Origin: Polyangia bacterium
GTDB lineage: Bacteria > Myxococcota_A > Polyangia > Nannocystales > Nannocystaceae
Direction of reading: 5' to 3'
Assembly (NCBI GenBank): GCA_030430565.1
Contig: JAUIKS010000008.1
Span: forward strand, 175,225 to 239,224
Length of the DNA: 64,000 nucleotides
Shown here piece by piece: positions 18,505-56,483 of this stretch. The notes beneath the pieces were generated by a model. That model was not told the DNA's origin. It saw only the letters and a list, made by a program, of their open reading frames with translations, and searched no databases. The translations under genes and the position numbers were made by a program. Position 1 is the stretch's first letter, and every line of letters starts with the position of its first letter.

Positions 18505-18576
18505 GCTGGCGTAGCTCAACGGAAGAGCACCTGCTTTGTAACCAGGTGGTTGTGGGTTCGACTCCCACCGCCAGCT
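18505..18576 (+). tRNA. tRNA, anticodon TGT (Thr) by manual folding
   Basis: Acceptor GCTGGCG/CGCCAGC, D-arm GCTC-AACGGAA-GAGC, anticodon arm CCTGC-TTTGTAA-CCAGG (one C.C mismatch at 31:39), variable TGGTT, T-arm GTGGG-TTCGACT-CCCAC. No encoded CCA. Confidence 0.65.
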
Positions 18577-18642
18577 CAACGCACGGGTCCATACCCGGCT
18601 CGGTGTCTATGCGCCGAGCCGGAGGGCTTCGATTTTCCGATT

Positions 18643-45572: not shown

Positions 45573-47369
45573 TCAGAAGAGCACGATCCGCACGTCGCGG
45601 ACGCACGAGAGCCCGCGCAGCAGCTCGCGCGCGAGGTAGCGAAACAGCGTGTCGAGACAGATCTCGCGCGAGAAGCCGCCGTTGCCCGTGGCCAGCAGCG
45701 GCAGCGCCAGGGTCTGCACGTTCAGCGTGTCGGCGTGATAGATGCAGCTGCCCAGGATCTCGCAGATCAGGTCGCGGCTCGGGCCCGGCCCCCCGCCGAA
45801 GCCGCGGCCACGCAGCGTGATCCCGTGGAACACGAAGCGCGCGCTCAACCCCCCCGCCGAGGTCACGACCGCTCGACCCGCGCGCACCGGGATGTAGCGC
45901 TGCGCCTGGTCGTAAACGGCCTCGCCCGCGGCCTGACGGATCGCTCGCGAGACGCCGCTGCGCATGGTCAAGAACTGATCGTCAGAGCTGACGAGCGCCT
46001 CGACGTCCTGATCGACCAGGTCACCGCAGACGATCGTCAGCGTGCGCGCGTCCGGGAAGTCGTAGCGGTCGAGGATCCGCCCGCGCGCCCTGCCGGTGCC
46101 GTCCGCGACCTCGAGGTAGTGCGCGCGCCGAGAGCGGTAGCGCTCGAGGTGGGGCCGCAGCGCGACGTCCTCGACCGCGTCCCAGGGCGAGATTGCGTCG
46201 ACGACCGGATCGATGACGGCGAGCACCTCGGCGAAGGACGAGAAGCGCTCGGAGGGGGACTTCGCCAGGCAGCGCTCGACAATCTCGCTCGTCCGCGCGC
46301 TGATCGCCGGGTTGAGCGAGCGCGGCGGCGTGAGCGGCTCGGTCTTGTGCTTGTGCAGGATCGCGAACCAATTCCCGCCGTCGAAGGCGGGCCGCCCGGT
46401 CAGCGCGTGGTAGAAGGTCGCGCCGAAGCTGTAGATGTCCGCGCGCGTGTCGACGCGGCGTGGATCCTCAGCTTGCTCAGGGGCCATGTACCACGGGCTC
46501 CCGAGCACCTGCCCGACCAGCACCGCCTCGTCGATCTCGCTCGGCCCGCGCGCCAGCCCAAAGTCGACCACGCGCGCCGCCCCTTCGTCGTCGACGAAGA
46601 TGTTCGAGGGCTTGAGGTCGCGGTGGATGATGCCCTCCTGCGCCGCCGCCAACATCCCGCGCGCCGTGTCTCGCATCCACCGGATCACGCGCTCCTCGTC
46701 GATCCCCACGTCGCCTGACTCGCGCTCTTCCGCCCGCATCACGCGCGCGAGATCAAGGCCGTCGATCCACTCCATCACGAGCACGGGCCCGCGCTCGGGG
46801 AGGATGTCGAAGTCGTGGATCTCGACCACGTGCGGCGAGTCGATCTTCGCCAAGATCCGCGCCTCTTGCAGGAAGCGACCCCGCGGGGCGCCCGGCAGCA
46901 GCACCTTGATCGCTACCTGCTTCTCGAGCGTTCGGTGCCGCGCCCGGTACACCACCCCCATCCCCCCGCGCCCGACCTCCTCCAGCACCTCGTAGCGCGC
47001 GCTCACGTCTCCGTCGCCCAGCACGAAGCCCTGCAGATCGTCGCTTGGTGACGGCCGCGTGCTGTGCGTCGCGCCCTCGCGCGAGGGCAGCGTCTCCGCG
47101 CCCTGGGCCCACAACGTCTCCGCGTGCGACGCCCGCTCAGTCGCGTGCTCGCTCCGCTGCGTCTTGCCGCGATCGTGCAGGGTCGTCTCCAGCTCCATCG
47201 CCGGAGGCGGTTCCGCGCCCTCACCCGCCGCGCTCGGGTCCCTGCGCGACGCCGTCATCGCATCCTCCACACGGGCAGCATCCCCCACCCCTTCGTGCGC
47301 AGCAAGCGTCCGCGCGCGGAAATTCGACCCCCGCCCACCGCCGCGACGCTCAGCGAAGGGCCGAAGCAC
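45573..47369 (-). CDS. Ser/Thr protein kinase fused to C-terminal macro-like (ADP-ribose-binding-type) domain
   Basis: Kinase motifs (GRGGMGVVYRARH, AIKVLL, HRDLKPSNIFV, DFGLAR, APE). C-terminal about 190 aa LTIVCGDLVDQDVEALVSSDD...RAIRQAAGEAVYDQAQRY...GRAVVTSAGGLSARFVFHGITL follows macro-domain spacing but lacks canonical NAAN/GGGV. Confidence 0.7.
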   Translation of the reverse strand: MLRPFAERRGGGRGSNFRARTLAAHEGVGDAARVEDAMTASRRDPSAAGEGAEPPPAMELETTLHDRGKTQRSEHATERASHAETLWAQGAETLPSREGATHSTRPSPSDDLQGFVLGDGDVSARYEVLEEVGRGGMGVVYRARHRTLEKQVAIKVLLPGAPRGRFLQEARILAKIDSPHVVEIHDFDILPERGPVLVMEWIDGLDLARVMRAEERESGDVGIDEERVIRWMRDTARGMLAAAQEGIIHRDLKPSNIFVDDEGAARVVDFGLARGPSEIDEAVLVGQVLGSPWYMAPEQAEDPRRVDTRADIYSFGATFYHALTGRPAFDGGNWFAILHKHKTEPLTPPRSLNPAISARTSEIVERCLAKSPSERFSSFAEVLAVIDPVVDAISPWDAVEDVALRPHLERYRSRRAHYLEVADGTGRARGRILDRYDFPDARTLTIVCGDLVDQDVEALVSSDDQFLTMRSGVSRAIRQAAGEAVYDQAQRYIPVRAGRAVVTSAGGLSARFVFHGITLRGRGFGGGPGPSRDLICEILGSCIYHADTLNVQTLALPLLATGNGGFSREICLDTLFRYLARELLRGLSCVRDVRIVLF

Positions 47370-47529: not shown

Positions 47530-50500
47530 TTACATGTCCTCGTAGCCCGCTTTCACGATGTGCAAGGCCCACTCGGTGTCAATCCAGCGGGTCGACTTGT
47601 GCGGTGTCCCGTCGAGGTAGCGGTGGCGATGCACCCGCTCTTGGTCGAGTACCCCGCCAGTCCGCGCGACATCATCTCGGGCCGCGAGCACCCAACCGAG
47701 ATCTGTTGTCGACACCGAACGCTCGGCGAATCCTCCGGTCCCACCATCGACCCGAAGTCCGCCCTTCGCAGCGCCTCCGATGATCCGCAATCGCGTCGAG
47801 CCCTGGGCGATCCATGAACCGGGAGGGTACCGGTCGAGGACACGCTTCACGAGCGCCACGGCTTGCTCGCGCCAGCGACGAGCCAGTGTCCGCGAAGCGC
47901 CGCGTCCCTTGCCGAGCGCTCTCCACGTTGCGAAGTCGACCTCCGGGATCTTCCACGCCGAATCGCGCCAGCGCCCAACCCCGGCGTATCGCCAGCCAGA
48001 CGCGTGCCGGGTCATGACGAACGCCGTCTCCGAGGGGCGACGGTTGGGTACGGGGAGTTCGACCGCGTCAGGCGCGGTCAGCGGTCCTTTGCTCTCCACG
48101 AGTAGGAACAGGTGCCCATCCACACGTGACCACGGACCGCGGGGGGGCTCGGAGAGCTTGAACCTCGCCACCAGGTCCTCGTTGCTCAGGAACTCGCCAA
48201 CGAAGGGCGCGAGCTGCTCGGGACGAACCACGTCGACGACTCGCGCGAGGACGGTCGTCTCCGCTGTGACTGGAAGGTCAGGTGCATCGGGGTTGTCCGA
48301 GCGAAGCTCAAAGCCGCCCTTGGCCTTCACGAGCCGCTTGAGGTGGTGGGCGAAGCCCGTGTGGGTGTCGCCCCGCGCAACCAGGACAACGCGCCCGACG
48401 ACCGCGGCGAGCGGAAGGCCGCGCCCCCACTCGAAGACAACCCAATCGCCGTCGCAGATCGGCTTGGATCCACCGCACATCGAGTCTCCATAGGCGCGGG
48501 TCGCAAATCGATTCTCGGCGGTTTCAACGGGGAGGCGCACGTAGTCCGCTTCAGCCTCAACTTCGACCGCCGGCCTCGAGATTGAACCGGCGGCCACCTC
48601 CAAGCTTGGGTACGCGACGAACCTGCCCCTTGGAACAAGGTCGATGACAGCAGCGAGAGGCTCGACCCACCAGCCGTCGGGCGCCCGCCGAAACTGAACG
48701 CGATACCGAGTGCCGGTTGCTCCCGCGCTTGGTCCGAACCACTGTCGGAGCAGATCCGGTAGCTTGTTGTCACGCGCGCCAACCGGCCGCGCCACATTGA
48801 CCGCGACTTTGACGAAGCGAAACAGCCACATCGAGCCGTCCTCGAGCCGTACCTCGGTATCGCCGTGCGGGAGTCGCTCGCGGCCCTTCGTCGGCAAAAA
48901 CAGGATTGGGCCCTTGGAGTTGTGCGAGACGTTGCAGACGAAGGAACTCTCGCCTGCGATCGAGTCTTCGTCGACTCGGGCGCGACGTTGATAGCGTGCG
49001 AGACGAGCGTCGACGAGCTGCCACGTCATCTCGACGAGCGCGTCGCGAGCCGCGGGGTCTTCCGGCGGCGGCAGCCGGAATCGCAGCGCGTCGTCCTGTA
49101 TGGAGAACCACGGCCCCTTCGTCCACGCCTGGATCGGGTTCTTTCGCCAGTAGCGACGCCACACAGCGGGCTCCGGAGCGCGCGGATCGGGTAGAGCCTT
49201 GACCCCCTTGAGATCCTCGAACAAGACAGGGTTGCGAAGCAGGTAGGCGTGGCTGCGACGCGCGAGCTGCTCGAGCGGCATCCCGTCGAACAGGGCCTCG
49301 GACGTAAGGAGCACTTCGAGCACGACCATCTTGAAGCACTTCGTCAGGCTCTCGCTGGCCTCGACGGCGTGCAGCCAGTCCTCGCCGTGTACGTAGGCTT
49401 TGCGCTCGGCTTCGCCGAGGTCGTTCTCGTCGCCAACGAACTCGAACCAGCTTTTATAGCGCTTTCGAATCGCGCGGATACTCTGTCCGAGTCGAACCAG
49501 TTCTCCGGGTGTTGGGCGAGTTCCACGTTCATCACGGAGTTCGCGGTAGACCTGCACCGCCGGGATCGCGTGGGAGGCCGGCGTGAGTTTCTTGAGCAGC
49601 TCGATGGCCTCGAGCTTGATCTCCACGCTGCATCCGGCCGGGAGTTCCAGCGTCTCCGGTCGCTCGAGGAATTGGGACAGAGGCGGCGCAGACGGTGAGA
49701 GCGTGAGCAGCGTGCGCACGCGGCCGAGGAACACCTTGTGATTGCCGACAAAATCGATGACCTCGAGGACATCTTTGCCCTCCGAAGTTCGCAGGCCGCG
49801 CCCGAGTTGCTGGAGAAACACCAGCGGCGACTCTGTTGGACGCAGCATGACGACCCGGTCGATCTGTGGCACGTCGATGCCCTCGTTGAACAGGTCGACC
49901 GCCGCGATGGCCTCGAGCTGACCGGAGTCGAGCTGCTCGAGGGCGTCACCACGGGACGCCGACGTTTCGCCCGAATGAACCGCGACGACTCGAACGCCCT
50001 TGCCCTTGAGCCATTTCGCAACGTAGTCCGCATGGCCGATCGACACGCAGAACACGAGCGTGCGAGTCGCGGGCCGCTCACACCACGCTTCGTACAGGCG
50101 CGACATCCGGGCCTCGGTCTCCACGAGTCGAGCCAGGTGCTCGATCGTGAACTGACGCCACGGCATGGGTTTGTACTCGGTTGTATCCGCGAGCCCTCGG
50201 TAGTGAAACGGCACAAGCAAACCACGCTGGATGCCCTCGCCAAGGTCGGCGCGAAAGGCAACGTGGTCGTCGAAGATCCCGCCGATATCGCCCTGGTCGG
50301 CGCGCTCCGGTGTGGCCGTAAGGCCGAGCAGGAACTTCGGATCGAGATGCGCGAGGAGCCGCCGGTAGGTCGGTGCGGCCGCGTGGTGCACTTCGTCTAC
50401 GATGACGTAGTCAAAGCTTGTCGCCGAGAGTCGGGCGAGCTGCTCGGGTCGCGTGAGCTTCTGAACCGACGCGAATACGAACTCGGATGACAGGTCGTCA

Positions 50501-51816
50501 GACGCCCCGTGAAAGAAGCCAAAAGTCGCGCTGGGAAACACGCGGCGAAACGTAGCGCTCGCCTGAATGAGCAGCTCACGGCGATGGACGAGGAACAGCA
50601 CACGAGTGCGAAGCCCCCGTCGTTCGCAAAACGCTTTGACATCGAATGCGGCCAGAAACGTCTTGCCGAGACCCGTCGCCAGGACCACCAAGGCGCGCTC
50701 GCGGCCATCGTCGCGGCTGCGCGCGAGAGCCTCGAGCGCGTCATTCTGGACACCGCGCGGAGCGACCAGCTCGTCAGTGATACCCTCTGCTTCCCCGATC
50801 GGCAGCTGCGCGTTGTCGGCACTCCGTCGGGCGTATTCCTGAAGCCATACCTCATCAAGGGTTCTCGCTCTCGCCCAAAGCTCGTCGAATGCTCCGACGA
50901 TGGCCGCGTACGCAGCGGGGTCGCGCGCGGCCTCTGTTCGCAGGTTCCACTCGACCCCAACGCCCAGGGCTGAGTCGGACCAGTTTGAGCTCCCGACGAA
51001 CGCGACAGCAAAATCGGGACCCTCAAACCGCCATGACTTTGGGTGAAACGCTCGATTATTTTGCAGCCTGGTCTCAACAACGCGTACCGAGAACGATCCG
51101 GGGCCCTCAGCTTGTGCGAGCTGCGCCCAGTCGAGTAGCCGGCGAAGCGCCTGAACCTGGGTGATGGCCAAGTAATCGCCAGTAACGACGCGAATCGTTG
51201 CACCACGTTCGAGCGCTTCATCAATCTGCACAGAGAGCGTATCTACCCCGGTGTGTTGGACGAAAGCCGCGACAATAGAGATCTGATCCGCGCGCTCAAA
51301 CAAATGGCGGACCGGACGACGAAACGGGTCGTCGGGACCCCCCACAACAAGTGGAGCCGCACGCGCAGCTCGGTTCGCCCACTCGTGCTCGGTGGTGGGC
51401 CGAGGGATGAATCCTGCCTGTTTGTAGTTCCCGTACCTGGGAATGACGAAACGAACGCCGCCCCGTGGGTCATCAACATCTCCCGTGTAGCGGGGAATCA
51501 CATGAATATGGAGATGGTCGACGGTCTGGCCAGCGGCATGTCCGGAGTTGAAGCCGACGTTGTATCCGTCTGGCTTGTGCGATGCGTCGAGCTGTCGTTT
51601 GACCGTCTCGACGAGTTCGAATATCGCGGTTTGCTCCTCGCGGCTGGCGTCGAACCAGGTCGCCACCACCCGATGGGGGATCACGAGCGTGTGCCCGTCA
51701 CTAACGGGGTAGGCGTCGCGAATGGCAAAGGCCAGCTCGTTCGAGGCAACCCACTCGCTGTTCGAAATCTCTGTAAACGGAGAACTCACGACGAATCGAC
51801 CTCGAGCCTTACACAC
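47530..51816 (-). CDS. 1428-aa fusion: HIT hydrolase - PLD (HKD) nuclease - SF2/ResIII helicase - DUF3427-like region - B3-like DNA-binding domain - LexA/UmuD-type S24 peptidase - unknown C-terminal domain
   Basis: HIT HLHIHVIP. PLD FHPKSWRF...GSSNWS. Helicase I ATGLGKT, II VDEVHH, III LTATPER, VI LQQLGRGLR. B3-like FVCNVSHNSKGPILFLPTKGRERLP..GSMWLFRF. S24 site VAAG(S) at aa 1074-1077, GDSM at 1110-1113, DGDWVVF, HLKRL (Ser1112/Lys1160). Confidence 0.85.
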   Translation of the reverse strand: MCKARGRFVVSSPFTEISNSEWVASNELAFAIRDAYPVSDGHTLVIPHRVVATWFDASREEQTAIFELVETVKRQLDASHKPDGYNVGFNSGHAAGQTVDHLHIHVIPRYTGDVDDPRGGVRFVIPRYGNYKQAGFIPRPTTEHEWANRAARAAPLVVGGPDDPFRRPVRHLFERADQISIVAAFVQHTGVDTLSVQIDEALERGATIRVVTGDYLAITQVQALRRLLDWAQLAQAEGPGSFSVRVVETRLQNNRAFHPKSWRFEGPDFAVAFVGSSNWSDSALGVGVEWNLRTEAARDPAAYAAIVGAFDELWARARTLDEVWLQEYARRSADNAQLPIGEAEGITDELVAPRGVQNDALEALARSRDDGRERALVVLATGLGKTFLAAFDVKAFCERRGLRTRVLFLVHRRELLIQASATFRRVFPSATFGFFHGASDDLSSEFVFASVQKLTRPEQLARLSATSFDYVIVDEVHHAAAPTYRRLLAHLDPKFLLGLTATPERADQGDIGGIFDDHVAFRADLGEGIQRGLLVPFHYRGLADTTEYKPMPWRQFTIEHLARLVETEARMSRLYEAWCERPATRTLVFCVSIGHADYVAKWLKGKGVRVVAVHSGETSASRGDALEQLDSGQLEAIAAVDLFNEGIDVPQIDRVVMLRPTESPLVFLQQLGRGLRTSEGKDVLEVIDFVGNHKVFLGRVRTLLTLSPSAPPLSQFLERPETLELPAGCSVEIKLEAIELLKKLTPASHAIPAVQVYRELRDERGTRPTPGELVRLGQSIRAIRKRYKSWFEFVGDENDLGEAERKAYVHGEDWLHAVEASESLTKCFKMVVLEVLLTSEALFDGMPLEQLARRSHAYLLRNPVLFEDLKGVKALPDPRAPEPAVWRRYWRKNPIQAWTKGPWFSIQDDALRFRLPPPEDPAARDALVEMTWQLVDARLARYQRRARVDEDSIAGESSFVCNVSHNSKGPILFLPTKGRERLPHGDTEVRLEDGSMWLFRFVKVAVNVARPVGARDNKLPDLLRQWFGPSAGATGTRYRVQFRRAPDGWWVEPLAAVIDLVPRGRFVAYPSLEVAAGSISRPAVEVEAEADYVRLPVETAENRFATRAYGDSMCGGSKPICDGDWVVFEWGRGLPLAAVVGRVVLVARGDTHTGFAHHLKRLVKAKGGFELRSDNPDAPDLPVTAETTVLARVVDVVRPEQLAPFVGEFLSNEDLVARFKLSEPPRGPWSRVDGHLFLLVESKGPLTAPDAVELPVPNRRPSETAFVMTRHASGWRYAGVGRWRDSAWKIPEVDFATWRALGKGRGASRTLARRWREQAVALVKRVLDRYPPGSWIAQGSTRLRIIGGAAKGGLRVDGGTGGFAERSVSTTDLGWVLAARDDVARTGGVLDQERVHRHRYLDGTPHKSTRWIDTEWALHIVKAGYEDM

Positions 51817-51911
51817 TCAAGGACATCGGTCATTCTCTGTAATCCCACACGCCACGAAACGGTAGATTGGCGTTCGCAATGTCATCATGACTACTCCAGC
51901 GCTGCGCGGGC

Positions 51912-52907
51912 TCACTGCTCAAAGCAGTATAGATGTGCTGGGAGTGCGCACGGAATGGTGTCTCCAAACGCGGACCAACGTTCATCCGTGTAGTTTGATT
52001 TCCCGAACTGTCCTGGCTCGAGATCGTCGCTGGTCCACTCAGAACAGTGCGCCATGTCGGGATGCTGCTCTCCCCAGGGCACAGTATTCGTCCACACCGA
52101 TACACCGTCGAGTAATTGACCGCTCTCGTCCATATCGATGGGGGCTTCGAGTCCTCCATCGACCAAGTCGTTCCAGTTGTCGGCTACCTTGGTCCCGTCG
52201 ACCAGGACATATCGTCCCTCGGACTTGAAGAAGTGTGTAGACGGCGAGTACTCGGACCCGCTGATCCAAGGACGAAAGTCGATGGCGTTCTCGAAGCCGG
52301 CCTCAAGCGCACGCTCGCGGCAGCGATTGATTGCACCGTCGATACCAGATAGATCTCCGAAATACGCTTCACTCGAGACAAAGACGACGCGATCGCGGGC
52401 GCAGGCGGTGTTGCAGCCGTCGTCTTTCTGATTGCCATCGTCACACTCCTCGTTAGGGCCAACGAAACCGTCGCCGCACATCGGGAGCAGACACGCGTTG
52501 GTGCATTCGTCGCTATTCTCGTCGTTGCCGTCGTCGCACTGCTCCCCTACTTGGACCTGACCGTCGCCACAATCCGCCGGCTCGCTCGTGTTGGTCGGGT
52601 CGCTGGTTGTGGAGCTCATCGCTGTCGTCGTGCCCGACTCGCTCTCGGACATCGTCCCGTCGGGACCACCGGTTGTCGTCTCGCCGCCCGTCATCGATGT
52701 GGGCTCAGTTTCGCTCTCGCTCCCCGACCCAACCTCGCTCATGCTCTCGCTCTCGGAGTCCCACGTCACCGTGATCTCGAGCGCTTCTTGCGAGGCCGCC
52801 TCGGCTTGGCATCCGACGAGGAACATGGCCAAGGCCGCGTGTTCGGCGTGTTCGAGTACTCGGGTTGACTTCGAGGGTCGCATCACGGACTCGCTCATCA
52901 TCGCCAA
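51912..52907 (-). CDS. Secreted protein with two Myxococcus cysteine-rich repeats and C-terminal DUF1554-like domain
   Basis: Hydrophobic signal LAMFLVGC. T/S/E-rich linker. CGDGQVQVGEQCDDGNDENSDEC and CGDGFVGPNEECDDGNQKDDGC. Cys-containing C-terminal domain ending LYCFEQ. Confidence 0.6.
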   Translation of the reverse strand: MAMMSESVMRPSKSTRVLEHAEHAALAMFLVGCQAEAASQEALEITVTWDSESESMSEVGSGSESETEPTSMTGGETTTGGPDGTMSESESGTTTAMSSTTSDPTNTSEPADCGDGQVQVGEQCDDGNDENSDECTNACLLPMCGDGFVGPNEECDDGNQKDDGCNTACARDRVVFVSSEAYFGDLSGIDGAINRCRERALEAGFENAIDFRPWISGSEYSPSTHFFKSEGRYVLVDGTKVADNWNDLVDGGLEAPIDMDESGQLLDGVSVWTNTVPWGEQHPDMAHCSEWTSDDLEPGQFGKSNYTDERWSAFGDTIPCALPAHLYCFEQ

Positions 52908-53021
52908 AATCGCGCGGAGATGGAAAAGCCCGTGTACCGCGGTCCAAGTGTAGGTGCAACACGCACAAACAACGAGATCGAAGTTACTGTTTCCGTTTGG
53001 CGCGTGCCCGTTGGGCGCCTA

Positions 53022-56000
53022 CTACGTCGCGCGGTAGCGTGTCCCGCGGGCGTTGCCACGGCAGGTCACCAGACCTTCTGTGCCCAACCGGGACAAGCTC
53101 GCTCGCAGCTGCAAGGGTGTACCTCCAGTCAGCTCACGCAACTCCGCCGCGGACGCGGGATGGTCAAAGGAGCGCACCGCCTCGAGCACCGCGCGATCGT
53201 ATTCCTGACGACCCTGCGCGGTCCGGGTGTTGATCGCCCGGGCCCGCGGTGATGTCCGCGTCGTGCCGCGCTTCGTCGTCTTCGCGCCCTTCTTCGCTGG
53301 CACAACACAAGCGACAGCCGGACGAGACGCGGCCACGTCTTCATCGCGCTCGACATCACCGTCGGACTCCAGCAGCGCCATCAGCTCCTCGGGCGAGAAG
53401 CGCGTCACGCCGCCGTCGCTCGCCAGCAGGCCCTCGGCCAGCGCCCGCTTCTGCTCGTGCAGCTCGAGCACCGCCTGCTCGATCGTCCCCTGCGACACGA
53501 AGCGGACGACCGTCACGGGCTTGTCCTGACCGATCCGGTGCGCGCGGTCGCTGGCCTGATCCTCGACGGCGGGGTTCCACCACGGGTCGAGGTGGAGCAC
53601 GTAGTCGGCGGCCGTCAGGTTGAGCCCGGTCCCGCCCGCCTTGAGCGAGATGAGGAACAGCGGCGCGTCTCCGGTCTGCCAGCGCTCGACCAGCTCGGCA
53701 CGCCGCTTCGCGGGGGTGGAGCCGTCGAGGTAGAGGTGCTCGAGCGTGGTCGCGTCCAGGCGCTCGCGGACCAGCGCGAGCAGGCCGGTGAACTGGCTGA
53801 ACACCAGCGCCCGGTGGCCCTCGGCGTGCAGCTCCGTGACGAGTTCCATGAAGGACTCGAGCTTGGACGAGGTCGCGCGCGAGCCCTCCTCCATGAGCTT
53901 GGGGTGGCACGCGAGCTGGCGAAGCCGCGTGAGCGCGGCCAGGATCGCGAAGCGGGCGTCTGGATCGTCTTCCCCAGGCCCATCTCGTCGGCCAGGCACG
54001 CGCCGGCGCCCCACTCCGCCAGGCGCATCAGCCACTCGAAGCCCTCACGCTGGTAGTCCCGCAGCGTCCCGTTGAACGCGGAGGGGACCCGCGGCTCGAT
54101 CTCCCGCCGCTATGCGCTCGAGCAACCTCGAGGTCGCGTCGTCGATGTCGAGCTGGGCCGCGTCCTCGACGAGTTCGGCGACGACGTTGACGGCCGCCGC
54201 TCCGCTCACGAGCTTGTCGCGCACGGGCGCGAGCGCGGCGTCGCTGTCGGCGAGTCGCCGCGCGAGCGCGCGCTCGAGCTCGACGAAGCGCTCGGGGCCC
54301 ACGCGGACGAAGCGACGACCCCCGCGCGCGGCCGCGAGCAGCTCACGCAGCGGGATGCGCTCGCCGTCGACCGTGACCTCGCCCTCGACCTCGAACCACT
54401 TCGGGCCCCGCCGCAGCTTCACGCGCAGGTCTCTCGGCGACGCTCGCTTCTTGAGCACGCGCCACGCCTTGCGCCCGGTCCACTCGATCGCGAGCGGGGG
54501 CTCCCCCTCCTCGGCGCGGCGCTGGAGCTCCGTGAGCAGCGCGAGCGCGGGCTGGAGCTCTTCGACGCGGTACTGGTGCTCGCGCTCCGTTCGGAAGCGC
54601 TCGAGCTCGAGCTCGCGCTCGAGCGCTTCGACGGCGCGGCGCTCTTGCTCGAGATCGCGCCGGGCGTGCACACGCTCGCCATCGAGCGCCCCGTACACGC
54701 TCGTGGGTCCCTGTCCCGGCGGCCATACCGAGCCGCCCTCACCGAGCGGCGCGCTCACGAGGGACACGACGAGTGATTCGTCGTCGGGCGTGAGACGCAC
54801 GACGAGCGCGGCGCCGCGTGAGACGCTTCGGCCCTGAAGCGCCGGCGGCAGCTCGAGCCCGACCGCGGGCTGGAGCTGTTGAAGCAGCGGGAGCAGCGAG
54901 GCGTAGGCGTCCTCCGGGAGACCGGCGCGATGCGTCTCGATCAACTCACGCAGCCCGTCGACGAGCGGCGTGCGCTCACAGAACACGCACACGCCGGTTT
55001 TGGGCTCGAACACGAACAACACCGCCCGCGCGTGATCCTCGGCGAGTTCGTGCTCTCGCAACGCGCCGAGGCGAAGCTCGAGATACGCGAGCTCCTCTCG
55101 CTGCGTCACGACGAGCGTCGGCGAAACCTCGCGCAGGCGTATGCGTTTGCTCGGATCGTCCGCCCGGAAGACGAGCTCGTGCTTGCACAACGCCCGCAGC
55201 GCGCTGAGCTGCGTACGCGCCGAGACCGAGCGTCGAGTCCAGCGGTAGTCATGCTGGATCTCGAGGGCGTCGGCGATCTCGCGGTCGAGCGGCGATGGCT
55301 CGGCGCTCTGCCACTGGATGTCATTCGGGCTGCACTTGCTCCCCGGGCTCCAACCGCCGCGCTTCTTTTGTTTCTGCACCGCAGGCCGAACCGTCAGCGC
55401 GCCGTCGCGCAGGTCCACGCGCCAGGTGACTCTCCGGGGCGCCGTGCTCGCGACAACACCGACGCTGTGCCGTCGCACCAGGCGATCGAGCGCCTCGACC
55501 GTCCGTGACCAGCCAAAACCCCCGGCGATCTCGAGCAGCGCTTCGTGGAGCCCGTGATCTGGATCGAAGAGCGCGTCGAGCGTCCATTCAACCAAGGAAC
55601 GCGCGTGGGCACGTTCGTGTCGCTTACGGTGGAAATCAAAAGACAGCGGCCGCGCGCGGTAGTCTCGCAGCGACAGGCTGACGGTCTTGCCCAGCTCGGA
55701 GTGCAGCACCGTGAGCGTCCGCTCTTCGCGGTGGAGCTCGACGATGATCTCGGCGACCAGCACAGGCTCCAGCGCGCGGGGTTGCGACCGGATGGCGTCG
55801 CGGAGCTCCGTCAGCGCGCGCGCGAGCAGCTCGAGCGGACGCGCAGGCAGCGGAGTAGACCAGAGCCCCATTCGCTTGCGATCGAGCGCGGTCCGCCGCG
55901 CCTCGGTGTACAGCTGCTTGCGCGCGGCCTCACGGGCGCGGTCACCAACGCTGCTCCAAAGGACATCCATCATGGGAGGCGGCGTGAGCGGTGGCACCAA

Positions 56001-56483
56001 CAGCTGGATATAGGTCGGCGTACCGACGTGATCGAAAAGGCCCGGCGGGATCCCGCCCCAAGCCGCGAGCTCGGGCACCGGCGCGTCGAGCAGATCCGCG
56101 ACGCCGTGTCGCTTCGCCCAGGCGCGCAGCGGCTTGGGCTCGCGCGGCGGCGAAGGAACATCGATCCCGACGTAGAGCTGGCGGGGCGACCAGCGGACGC
56201 GCTGGTCATCCGTGTCGGCGACGGAGAGCGCGTCGACGAGTTCCCGAATCAGGATGAAGCGCATCTCTTCGGGTAGCTCCTCGTCGAGATACCGGTGAAA
56301 CACGGGGCTCGAGAGCAGCTCTCCCATCGTCTGAATGTTCAGGAGTCGGGCGAAGTCACGGACGAACTCGACGGTGTCCCAATCACCGTCGATCTCGTCG
56401 ACGGCGATCGAGTTCAACATCCGCGCCCGCGCTGGTACTCGGAGCCAGCGCTTTAACCCTTGGACCGTCGTCGGGGCTCCCAT
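53022..56483 (-). pseudogene. SNF2-family helicase, disrupted (frameshift before DYQ motif; internal deletion of ATPase lobe 1 after Walker A)
   Basis: An 812-aa N-terminal ORF (54045..56483) ends in a stop. +1 frame reads [40 protein letters not shown] (SNF2 Q/Walker A). Then a frame change gives [22 protein letters not shown], joined directly to helicase-C (LDGSTP, WWNPAVEDQASDRAHRIGQ). About 250 aa incl. DExH missing. Confidence 0.55.

Follow-up and report, generated by a model that had tools for sequence, protein, structure and literature searches.

A SauUSI-family nuclease-motor protein from Polyangia with a LexA-type S24 module: a possible restriction enzyme carrying its own SOS sensor

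Results

Within a stretch of 64,000 nucleotides from a Polyangia bacterium, hereafter the window, positions 47530..51816 of the minus strand hold a single uninterrupted open reading frame (ORF) of 1428 codons that starts with GTG and has its stop codon at 47530-47532. Here we describe its product, which joins the nuclease, motor and coupler of the restriction enzyme SauUSI to an N-terminal HIT domain, a B3-like barrel, a LexA-type S24 module and a C-terminal domain presumed to be the target reader. Motor and reader are joined covalently through the LexA-type module alone. We tentatively propose that the protein is a restriction enzyme with its own SOS sensor, in which RecA-stimulated self-cleavage at a conserved Ala-Gly bond would separate the reader from the nuclease-motor, such that a damage signal would turn the enzyme off or on, or hand its specificity to the B3-like domain, without transcription. 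The HIT domain, which co-varies with the S24 module, could add a second, nucleotide-based input. On anatomical grounds, uncoupling of the reader, and hence switching off, is favoured no less than activation.

Translation probably begins at codon 10 (VSSPFTE.., a GTG at window position 51789), because the homologues and the public gene call begin there, and the protein would then have 1419 residues. Residue numbers throughout are those of the 1428-codon ORF, as used in a first-pass annotation of this DNA that did not give the minus-strand placement. All motifs that this annotation had listed were found at the residue numbers given. In the N-terminal part these are HLHIHVIP (101-108), FHPKSWRF (257-264) and GSSNWS (275-280), followed by the helicase motifs ATGLGKT (380-386), VDEVHH (473-478), LTATPER (499-505) and LQQLGRGLR (668-676), by a Trp-rich block made up of KSWFEFV.. 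(788-800) and KCFKMVVLEVLL (826-837), and by the C-terminal motifs FVCNVSH.. (959-1001), VAAG (1074-1077), GDSM.. (1110-1128, with Ser1112) and HLKRL.. (1158-1176, with Lys1160). This set of domains and motifs goes far beyond chance, because it is backed by Pfam matches and by more than 120 full-length homologues (about 1405-1460 aa) that share 50-56% identity with the query, and which their source annotates merely as 'DEAD/DEAH box helicase family protein'. All statements on conservation given below refer to an alignment of 119 full-length relatives, in which the catalytic residues of the HIT, PLD, helicase and S24 parts are all invariant, with the exception of H103 (118/119). The domain order proposed in the first-pass annotation (HIT, PLD, SF2 helicase, B3-like, S24) is borne out by profile hidden Markov models (HMMs), by fold and by this conservation, with the PLDc_2 match lying slightly below its cut-off.

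Nuclease, motor and coupler

The family profile aligned to the solved structure of SauUSI (7CLG, chain 7clg_A) with an E value of 6.8e-122, residues 124-846 corresponding to SauUSI 20-715, and the PADLOC model for Type IV methyl-directed restriction enzymes (mREase_IV) matched residues 171-760 (E 4.7e-97). The earlier statement that the protein corresponds to no named system was thus too strong. It has been shown that SauUSI consists of a PLD nuclease with an HxK(x)4E motif (residues 1-191), an SF2 ATPase (221-617), an alpha-helical coupler (618-805) and an SRA-fold target-recognition domain (806-953) (PMC7913695). Recognition of the modified site by this reader starts ATP hydrolysis and translocation, after which a PLD dimer cuts (PMC7913695; bioRxiv 10.1101/2025.10.16.682607). 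Furthermore, PLD nucleases must dimerise to make one active site, and the apo structure of SauUSI has been described as an inactive state (PMC7913695).

In our protein, the PLD-family nuclease spans aa 193-314 (50875..51240, minus strand) and contains H258-x-K260-x4-E265 followed by G275-S-S-N278. The PLDc_2 score in Pfam is 25.3 bits, slightly under the cut-off of 27, and the sequence H258-P-K260-S-W-R-F-E265 is an HxK(x)4E motif identical in form to that of SauUSI; residues H258, K260, N278 and S280 are invariant. The SF2 DExH helicase-like ATPase (aa 352-693; 49738..50763, minus strand) is recognised by the ResIII/DEAD (aa 352-505, E 5.5e-36) and Helicase_C (aa 573-677, E 6e-14) models of Pfam, and its Walker A (GLGKT, 382-386), DEVHH (474-478) and motif VI (QQLGRGLR, 669-676) sequences are likewise invariant. 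It is followed by an alpha-helical coupler (aa 700-954; 48955..49719, minus strand), all-helical in the AlphaFold2 model, with a winged-helix-like portion with a beta hairpin and the Trp-rich block (788-837).

The profile alignment to SauUSI covers the nuclease, the ATPase and only part of the coupler, ending at SauUSI 715, that is at aa 846. When aa 651-1428 were compared as a single sequence with those of the PDB, only the helicase end was matched and the coupler was not reached. Since the profile alignment runs through aa 846, the Trp-rich block is assigned to the SauUSI-type coupler. The first-pass annotation had taken this block to be DUF3427-like, a reading that we discard, as Pfam gave no DUF3427 match in the protein even at E <= 1.

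Taken together, the SauUSI-type nuclease, motor and coupler make us highly confident that the protein is a SauUSI-family nuclease-motor. Judging from these sequence matches, it is probably a modification-dependent (Type IV) restriction enzyme.

The LexA-type S24 module and the B3-like barrel

The part of the protein beyond the motor was modelled with AlphaFold2 (aa 700-1428, 118 homologues in the alignment, mean predicted local distance difference test score (pLDDT) of 90.9). The model consists of the helical region 700-954, a seven-stranded barrel with one helix (958-1054), the S24 module (1066-1197) and an alpha/beta domain (1199-1428).

The S24 module is of the LexA/lambda-cI type (aa 1066-1197; 48226..48621, minus strand). 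The Pfam model Peptidase_S24 matches aa 1073-1194 with an E value of 1.6e-9 and 37.9 bits, against a gathering score of 23.3. The best fold matches of the region are lambda cI fragments that include the cleavage-site region, which is also where the alignment to the LexA HMM begins. The predicted scissile bond, Ala1076-Gly1077, is encoded at 48586..48591 on the minus strand (codons verified), the predicted nucleophile Ser1112, in G-D-S-M, at 48481..48483 and the predicted general base Lys1160, in L-K-R-L, at 48337..48339, both also on the minus strand; each of these residues is present in 119/119 relatives. Gly1110 and Met1113 are invariant as well, and, as in LexA, the scissile bond lies in the context (A/V)-A-A-G. 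Ser1112 comes 35 residues after the site, which equals the spacing between Ala84 and Ser119 of LexA. The loop that follows the scissile bond is variable and has low model confidence. Thus, the module agrees with the LexA/cI/UmuD peptidases in all characteristic features of sequence and fold, and the earlier claim of an intact LexA-type site with a Ser/Lys dyad holds, given the Pfam match, the fold and the invariance.

The protein is not a LexA repressor, because the TIGR00498 equivalog model scores only 22.7 bits against a cut-off of 110.95, with only the C-terminal half of the model matched, and because there is no helix-turn-helix (HTH), the preceding domain being B3-like. On the basis of the conserved residues, the S24 module is likely to be proteolytically active. 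To our knowledge, all well-studied S24 switches respond to filaments of RecA on single-stranded DNA (ssDNA). By analogy with them, we lean towards cleavage that responds to such filaments.

The domain that precedes the S24 module, a B3-like beta-barrel of the DNA-binding type (aa 958-1054; 48655..48945, minus strand), is assigned by its fold. The first-pass annotation had called it B3/EcoRII-N-like: the seven-stranded pseudobarrel of the AlphaFold2 model agrees with that reading, and sequence comparison does not, as neither PF02362 (B3) nor PF09217 (EcoRII-N) gave a match at E <= 1 in Pfam.

The C-terminal domain

The C-terminal domain (aa 1199-1428; 47533..48222, minus strand), an SRA-like beta-barrel followed by a helical subdomain, is the presumed target-recognition domain. 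When aa 1196-1428 were modelled alone, the pLDDT was 96.1. The fold was likened, with moderate strength, to the modified-base readers of restriction enzymes, the proteins named with it being ScoMcrA, KRYPTONITE and UHRF1 as well as TagI, AbaSI, PvuRts1I, MspJI and LpnPI.

No similarity was detected at the level of sequence. A profile of the domain gave zero matches in the PDB, and hhalign against the DUF3427 domains of neighbouring paralogues returned a probability of 0.2%. These searches thus found no homology in sequence with DUF3427 or with any solved structure, and the SRA-like assignment accordingly comes from fold. Of 1.84 billion cluster representatives scanned exhaustively with HMMER, only 223 matched, essentially all of them members or fragments of this family. 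As far as these searches reach, the domain is family-specific at sequence level. We consider it fairly probable, from the modelled fold, that the domain is a modified-base reader. With moderate confidence, it would be a very divergent SRA-like reader at the position that the target-recognition domain occupies in SauUSI.

Distribution and modularity of the family

Relatives were found in 104 of 185,579 species in a scan with one genome per species. Their hosts are mainly Myxococcota (Archangium, Pyxidicoccus, Hyalangium, Sorangium, Minicystis, Nannocystis, Anaeromyxobacter and Kofleriaceae), together with Acidobacteriota, Planctomycetota and a few other metagenome-assembled genomes. A tblastn search with aa 956-1428 found no match in plasmid or phage records. 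The spacing of the seven domains is common to nearly all loci with enough sequence, and some of the incomplete copies derived from genomes end at contig edges. Among the long genome-derived copies, 49 of 59 keep all 13 catalytic residues that were scored, and the Ala-Gly, Ser and Lys residues are kept in 56 of 59.

Among the matches to the C-terminal domain are several sister proteins of a different composition. In P0136, P0153, P0176, P0179, P0192, P0228 and P0216 the S24 module is absent and the B3-like barrel is joined straight onto the C-terminal domain; P0186 (966 aa) lacks both the B3-like barrel and the S24 module. Because sister proteins join the two domains directly or have neither B3 nor S24, we read the S24 module, from these sequence comparisons, as an insertion into a working PLD-motor-coupler-B3-reader enzyme.

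The HIT domain and the S24 module are mostly gained, lost or degenerate jointly, as judged from descriptive counts of few independent cases. P0166 has kept S24 with a degenerate HIT domain. In the divergent protein P0259 (1366 aa), the His triad is missing (PPAVLIIPR), Ala-Gly has become Tyr-Gly, the Ser is replaced by Ala (DDAM) and the Lys by Arg (LRM); the PLD and helicase motifs are still intact. This joint loss, a single case, hints that HIT and S24 act together.

Two further ORFs are decay products of the family. Sorangium sp. So ce134 (L019 9374-10723) contains a deletion remnant, an ORF of 449 aa in which the first approximately 45 HIT residues are fused directly to the post-cleavage S24 part and the reader. 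At another locus (L009 9725-10699) there is an ORF of 324 aa that begins within S24.

The HIT domain

The HIT domain (aa 20-111; 51484..51759, minus strand) is recognised by PF01230 with 80.1 bits against a cut-off of 21.5 (E 2e-22, aa 20-111). Within its triad H101/H103/H105, the first and the last histidine are invariant. When the family profile was compared with solved structures, the best-ranking relatives of this domain were archaeal and bacterial HIT proteins, Fhit, Hint and Ap4A phosphorylase, and the top HIT-type match in NCBIfam was ATP adenylyltransferase/Ap4A phosphorylase (69.5 bits, under its cut-off). The domain, which is of the Hint/Fhit/Ap4A-phosphorylase type, is predicted to be a catalytically intact nucleotide hydrolase or transferase. 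The analogy with aprataxin drawn in the first-pass annotation does not fit this picture: no aprataxin was among the 60 matches listed of 209, and the Pfam scan of the protein gave no match to a zinc finger. Membership of the aprataxin-type DNA 5'-deadenylases is therefore not supported, the similarity among the listed matches lying with Hint, Fhit and Ap4A phosphorylase.

Locus and genomic neighbourhood

The gene lies in a 5.4-kb island of low G+C content (window 47600-53000), in which values are 56-68% compared with about 70% in both flanks. The island spans exactly the gene and a small DUF4215 ORF (51912-52907) upstream of it, and its lower G+C content points to horizontal acquisition. The DUF4215 domain, like the list of homologues, is indicative of a myxobacterial genome. 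Nothing convincing was found in the way of direct or inverted repeats flanking the island, and no tRNA gene adjoins it. The sole tRNA gene of the window, tRNA-Thr (TGT) at 18505-18577, is far from the gene and lies at a local dip in GC content (0.618, 18-20 kb).

On the side of the DUF4215 ORF, two adjoining ORFs of 812 and 337 aa lie in different frames of the minus strand (53022-56483). Together they are the homologue of a 1292-aa DUF8344-SNF2 helicase encoded near the family member of Pyxidicoccus (L002). The 812-aa ORF corresponds to residues 106-785 of that helicase (27% identity) and the 337-aa ORF to residues 1084-1291 (61%). What the two lack is the N-lobe of the SNF2 ATPase (about residues 800-1080), so that the pair looks like a deletion remnant or a split gene.

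Neighbouring genes were clustered over 80 loci, and the frequencies given here are descriptive counts without a background model. This clustering revealed no universal partner gene or operon and no conserved antitoxin or immunity gene nearby. The commonest neighbour belongs to the canonical SauUSI-like proteins (PLD-ResIII-Helicase_C-DUF3427; about 1040-1060 aa) and adjoins the gene in about 10-11 of 78 loci (~13%), in several phyla and in either orientation; loci with such a paralogue are L004, L009, L012, L038, L047, L071, L074, L079, L081, L082 and L088. The pairing could be a two-enzyme cassette, or plain clustering in defence islands. Further contexts point to defence or mobility. One locus lies between McrBC-like genes and has a resolvase and a RepB primase, and a helicase of the Schlafen-group-3/DUF2075 type directly adjoins the gene at three loci (L054, L056 and L077; PF09848, E 5.8e-61 in L054, the only copy scanned). 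YhgA transposases and toxin-antitoxin genes are among the neighbours at some loci. Thus, a defence-type neighbourhood is recurrent in this family.

In Anaeromyxobacter sp. Fw109-5 (L001 1-7939), the gene is preceded by a pair of DUF1156 genes, a small ORF and the gene for a DUF499 ATPase; just downstream come an HNH gene and an integrase. An HKD-helicase effector holds that position in 'Type-2 BREX-related' systems (PMC12839542). We have nonetheless rejected the protein as an effector of DUF1156/DUF499/DUF3780 BREX-related systems, since such partners were seen only at the Fw109-5 locus, are absent in the window and do not recur in the 80 loci.

Directly downstream of the gene in the window (45573-47369, minus strand) lies the gene for a protein of 598 aa in which a Ser/Thr protein kinase is joined to a Macro (ADP-ribose-binding or -hydrolase) domain. 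Ser/Thr kinases are found near family members at 6 other loci; they are very abundant in Myxococcota and may be background. M16 peptidase genes flank the gene in both Pyxidicoccus and Archangium. The kinases and the M16 peptidases near the gene look like lineage background or synteny.

Discussion

How might such a protein work? Its chassis would be that of SauUSI, an ATP-dependent restriction enzyme made of one polypeptide: a PLD nuclease, an SF2 translocase motor, a helical coupler and a C-terminal SRA-like reader. Three modules would have been added to it, namely the HIT domain at the N-terminus, the B3-like barrel after the coupler and the S24 module between barrel and reader. In the mechanism that we consider, binding of the reader, presumably to a modified base, would license ATP-driven translocation and cleavage by a dimer of the PLD nuclease, as in SauUSI. 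RecA-ssDNA filaments, arising from DNA damage, including damage done by the enzyme to its own chromosome, would then induce Ser1112 and Lys1160 to cut the Ala1076-Gly1077 bond, which is the least certain step. The products would be HIT-PLD-motor-coupler-B3 (1-1076, about 118 kDa) and S24-reader (1077-1428, about 39 kDa), and the cut would disable restriction, acting as a damage-triggered fuse for 'restriction alleviation' or against autoimmunity. That cleavage would be triggered by damage is inferred from the response of well-studied S24 switches to RecA filaments. This full mechanism, in which self-cleavage acts as an off-switch by uncoupling the reader from the nuclease-motor, is slightly more tentative than the general proposal of a built-in sensor. 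For the direction of the switch taken by itself, if cleavage occurs, inactivation is somewhat more probable than activation.

Three considerations favour an off-switch. Firstly, a motor of the SauUSI type should be unable to start once its reader is gone. Secondly, the sister proteins that lack S24 keep the reader permanently attached. Thirdly, there is a proteolytic precedent: EcoKI, also a translocating restriction enzyme, is inactivated by ClpXP when DNA has been damaged or recombination has taken place (PMC11109961; PMC12707154).

Several observations weigh against this mechanism. It gives no role to the HIT domain, and the nuclease-motor fragment would keep the B3-like domain after the cut and might stay, or become, active. 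From UmuD it is known that cleavage of an S24 protein may activate it instead of inactivating it. Most genomic contexts are uninformative, many loci are ordinary chromosome, and some are syntenic in Myxococcaceae, which is unusual for defence genes with a fast turnover. Moreover, no SOS box of the Myxococcus type was detected upstream of nine loci, which is a weak negative.

The opposite direction, which is in essence what the first-pass annotation had proposed and which also covers a switch of specificity, would make the cut an on-switch or an abortive-infection device. The tethered S24-reader would inhibit the enzyme or restrict it to modified DNA, and cleavage triggered by RecA filaments, formed while a phage replicates or once DNA is damaged, would free HIT-PLD-motor-B3 with a relaxed or B3-defined specificity. 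We regard this as less probable, yet as a serious rival with real points in its favour. Cleavage site and dyad are invariant, and UmuD is activated by S24 cleavage. The N-terminal product would retain the nuclease, the motor and a B3-like domain of the kind present in BfiI and NgoAVII, the inactive state of apo SauUSI would also be consistent with it (PMC7913695), and defence systems triggered by damage to host DNA exist, AbpAB being an example (PMC10732053). However, SauUSI needs its reader to start ATP hydrolysis and translocation, and loss of the reader should therefore disable the enzyme, not unleash it. The permanent retention of the reader by the sisters without S24 suggests that it is a working part and not an inhibitor. 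In addition, a non-specific nuclease activated by damage would turn any SOS episode into suicide, and the neighbourhood contains no conserved antitoxin or immunity gene as a partner.

It could also be argued that the S24 module is not a damage switch at all. It might serve in dimerisation or in docking to RecA filaments, or it might cleave itself constitutively and independently of RecA as a step of maturation, in which case the protein would be a plain Type IV enzyme with an unusual linker. In LexA, cI and UmuD, the S24 domains form dimers and fit into the groove of the RecA filament (PMC9926225), and the need of PLD nucleases for a dimer is in line with such a role (PMC7913695). Similarly, RecA-independent self-cleavage has been reported for LexA-like proteins, IrvR among them (PMC7101444). 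Dimerisation alone, however, needs no invariant Ala-Gly, Ser and Lys in 119 sequences at about 50% identity, and P0259 has lost Ser, Lys and Ala-Gly together with its HIT triad, which speaks for selection on the catalytic residues in the proteins that retain them. We consider this explanation improbable.

Least probable of all is a role in SOS-linked DNA repair or end processing, in which nucleotidyl adducts would be stripped by HIT and blocked DNA ends treated by the PLD domain in the manner of Tdp1, with the helicase remodelling the lesion and S24 tying the protein to the damage response. Aprataxin (a HIT protein) and Tdp1 (PLD superfamily) do clean DNA ends in eukaryotes, the helicase also matches RadD, XPB and UvrB models, and many loci are ordinary chromosome with synteny within Myxococcaceae. 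However, those repair-helicase matches are far under their cut-offs, and SauUSI is by far the closest homologue, over about 700 residues that include the HxK(x)4E nuclease motif. The HIT domain is nearer to Hint, Fhit and Ap4A phosphorylase, with no aprataxin among the 60 matches listed of 209, and the C-terminal domain is similar in fold to the modified-base readers found in restriction enzymes. Relatives are patchily distributed, in about 104 of 185,579 species genomes, decay remnants and a low-GC island have been found, and the gene recurrently adjoins other restriction genes.

Translocating restriction enzymes endanger their own host, and how they are restrained is understood only in part, the alleviation of Type I restriction by ClpXP being the textbook case. 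If the proposal of a built-in sensor is true, a LexA-type fuse carried by the enzyme itself would be a new and very direct restraint or, alternatively, a novel means by which DNA damage arms a nuclease. As far as the literature searched shows, it would have no precedent either as autoproteolytic control of a restriction enzyme or as a LexA switch embedded in an enzyme that is not a regulator, and it would widen the uses of S24 switches beyond repressors and UmuD. Furthermore, a conserved family with relatives in the genomes of about 104 species is hereby defined, its reader may recognise a DNA modification that has not yet been tied to restriction, and the S24 module might be of use in engineering as a damage-responsive module for splitting proteins.

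Comparison with known systems

The sequences as such are not new, because databases already hold proteins of this family, whose automatic JGI names enumerate the COGs they comprise; as a functional unit, the architecture seems to be undescribed. In the literature searched in full text, we found no description of an S24 or HIT fusion to a SauUSI-like or any other restriction enzyme, and a 2025 review of restriction-modification makes no mention of LexA, autoproteolysis or self-cleavage. The suggestion of the first-pass annotation that both additions to this family are undescribed thus agrees with our searches.

The closest known system is SauUSI, the ATP-dependent Type IV enzyme of Staphylococcus aureus (PDB 7CLG; PLDc_2, ResIII, Helicase_C and DUF3427), with which the protein shares nuclease, motor and coupler. 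Enzymes of the SauUSI family cut only DNA that is modified (5mC/5hmC), as dimers formed by way of the PLD domains. It is about 470 residues longer, with the HIT domain at the N-terminus and the B3-like barrel and S24 between coupler and reader. No sequence similarity of the reader to DUF3427 was detectable, and the reader corresponds to that of SauUSI by fold only. Compared with LexA, lambda cI and UmuD (MEROPS S24), the S24 module is embedded in a nuclease-helicase of 1419 aa and not in a small repressor, and the DNA-binding domain ahead of it is B3-like and not HTH. Moreover, about 230 residues follow the module, whereas S24 is C-terminal in LexA, cI and UmuD.

R.NgoAVII/CglI and BfiI likewise combine a PLD nuclease with a B3-like barrel, and NgoAVII/CglI also has an SF2 ATPase (PMC7913695). 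In those enzymes, however, sequence is read by the B3 domain, a helicase, where there is one, forms a subunit of its own, and there is no SRA-like, S24 or HIT domain. The enzymes that couple an SRA domain to a nuclease (ScoMcrA, TagI, MspJI, AbaSI and PvuRts1I) differ in using HNH or PD-(D/E)XK nucleases and in having no motor, HIT or S24. Finally, the alleviation of Type I restriction, in which ClpXP acts on HsdR of EcoKI, offers a functional analogy, as proteolysis there stops a translocating enzyme in a manner linked to RecA and DNA damage (PMC11109961; PMC12707154). On the one hand, that control is exerted in trans, by a housekeeping protease acting on stalled complexes; on the other hand, the protease of the protein described here would act in cis, on one defined bond.

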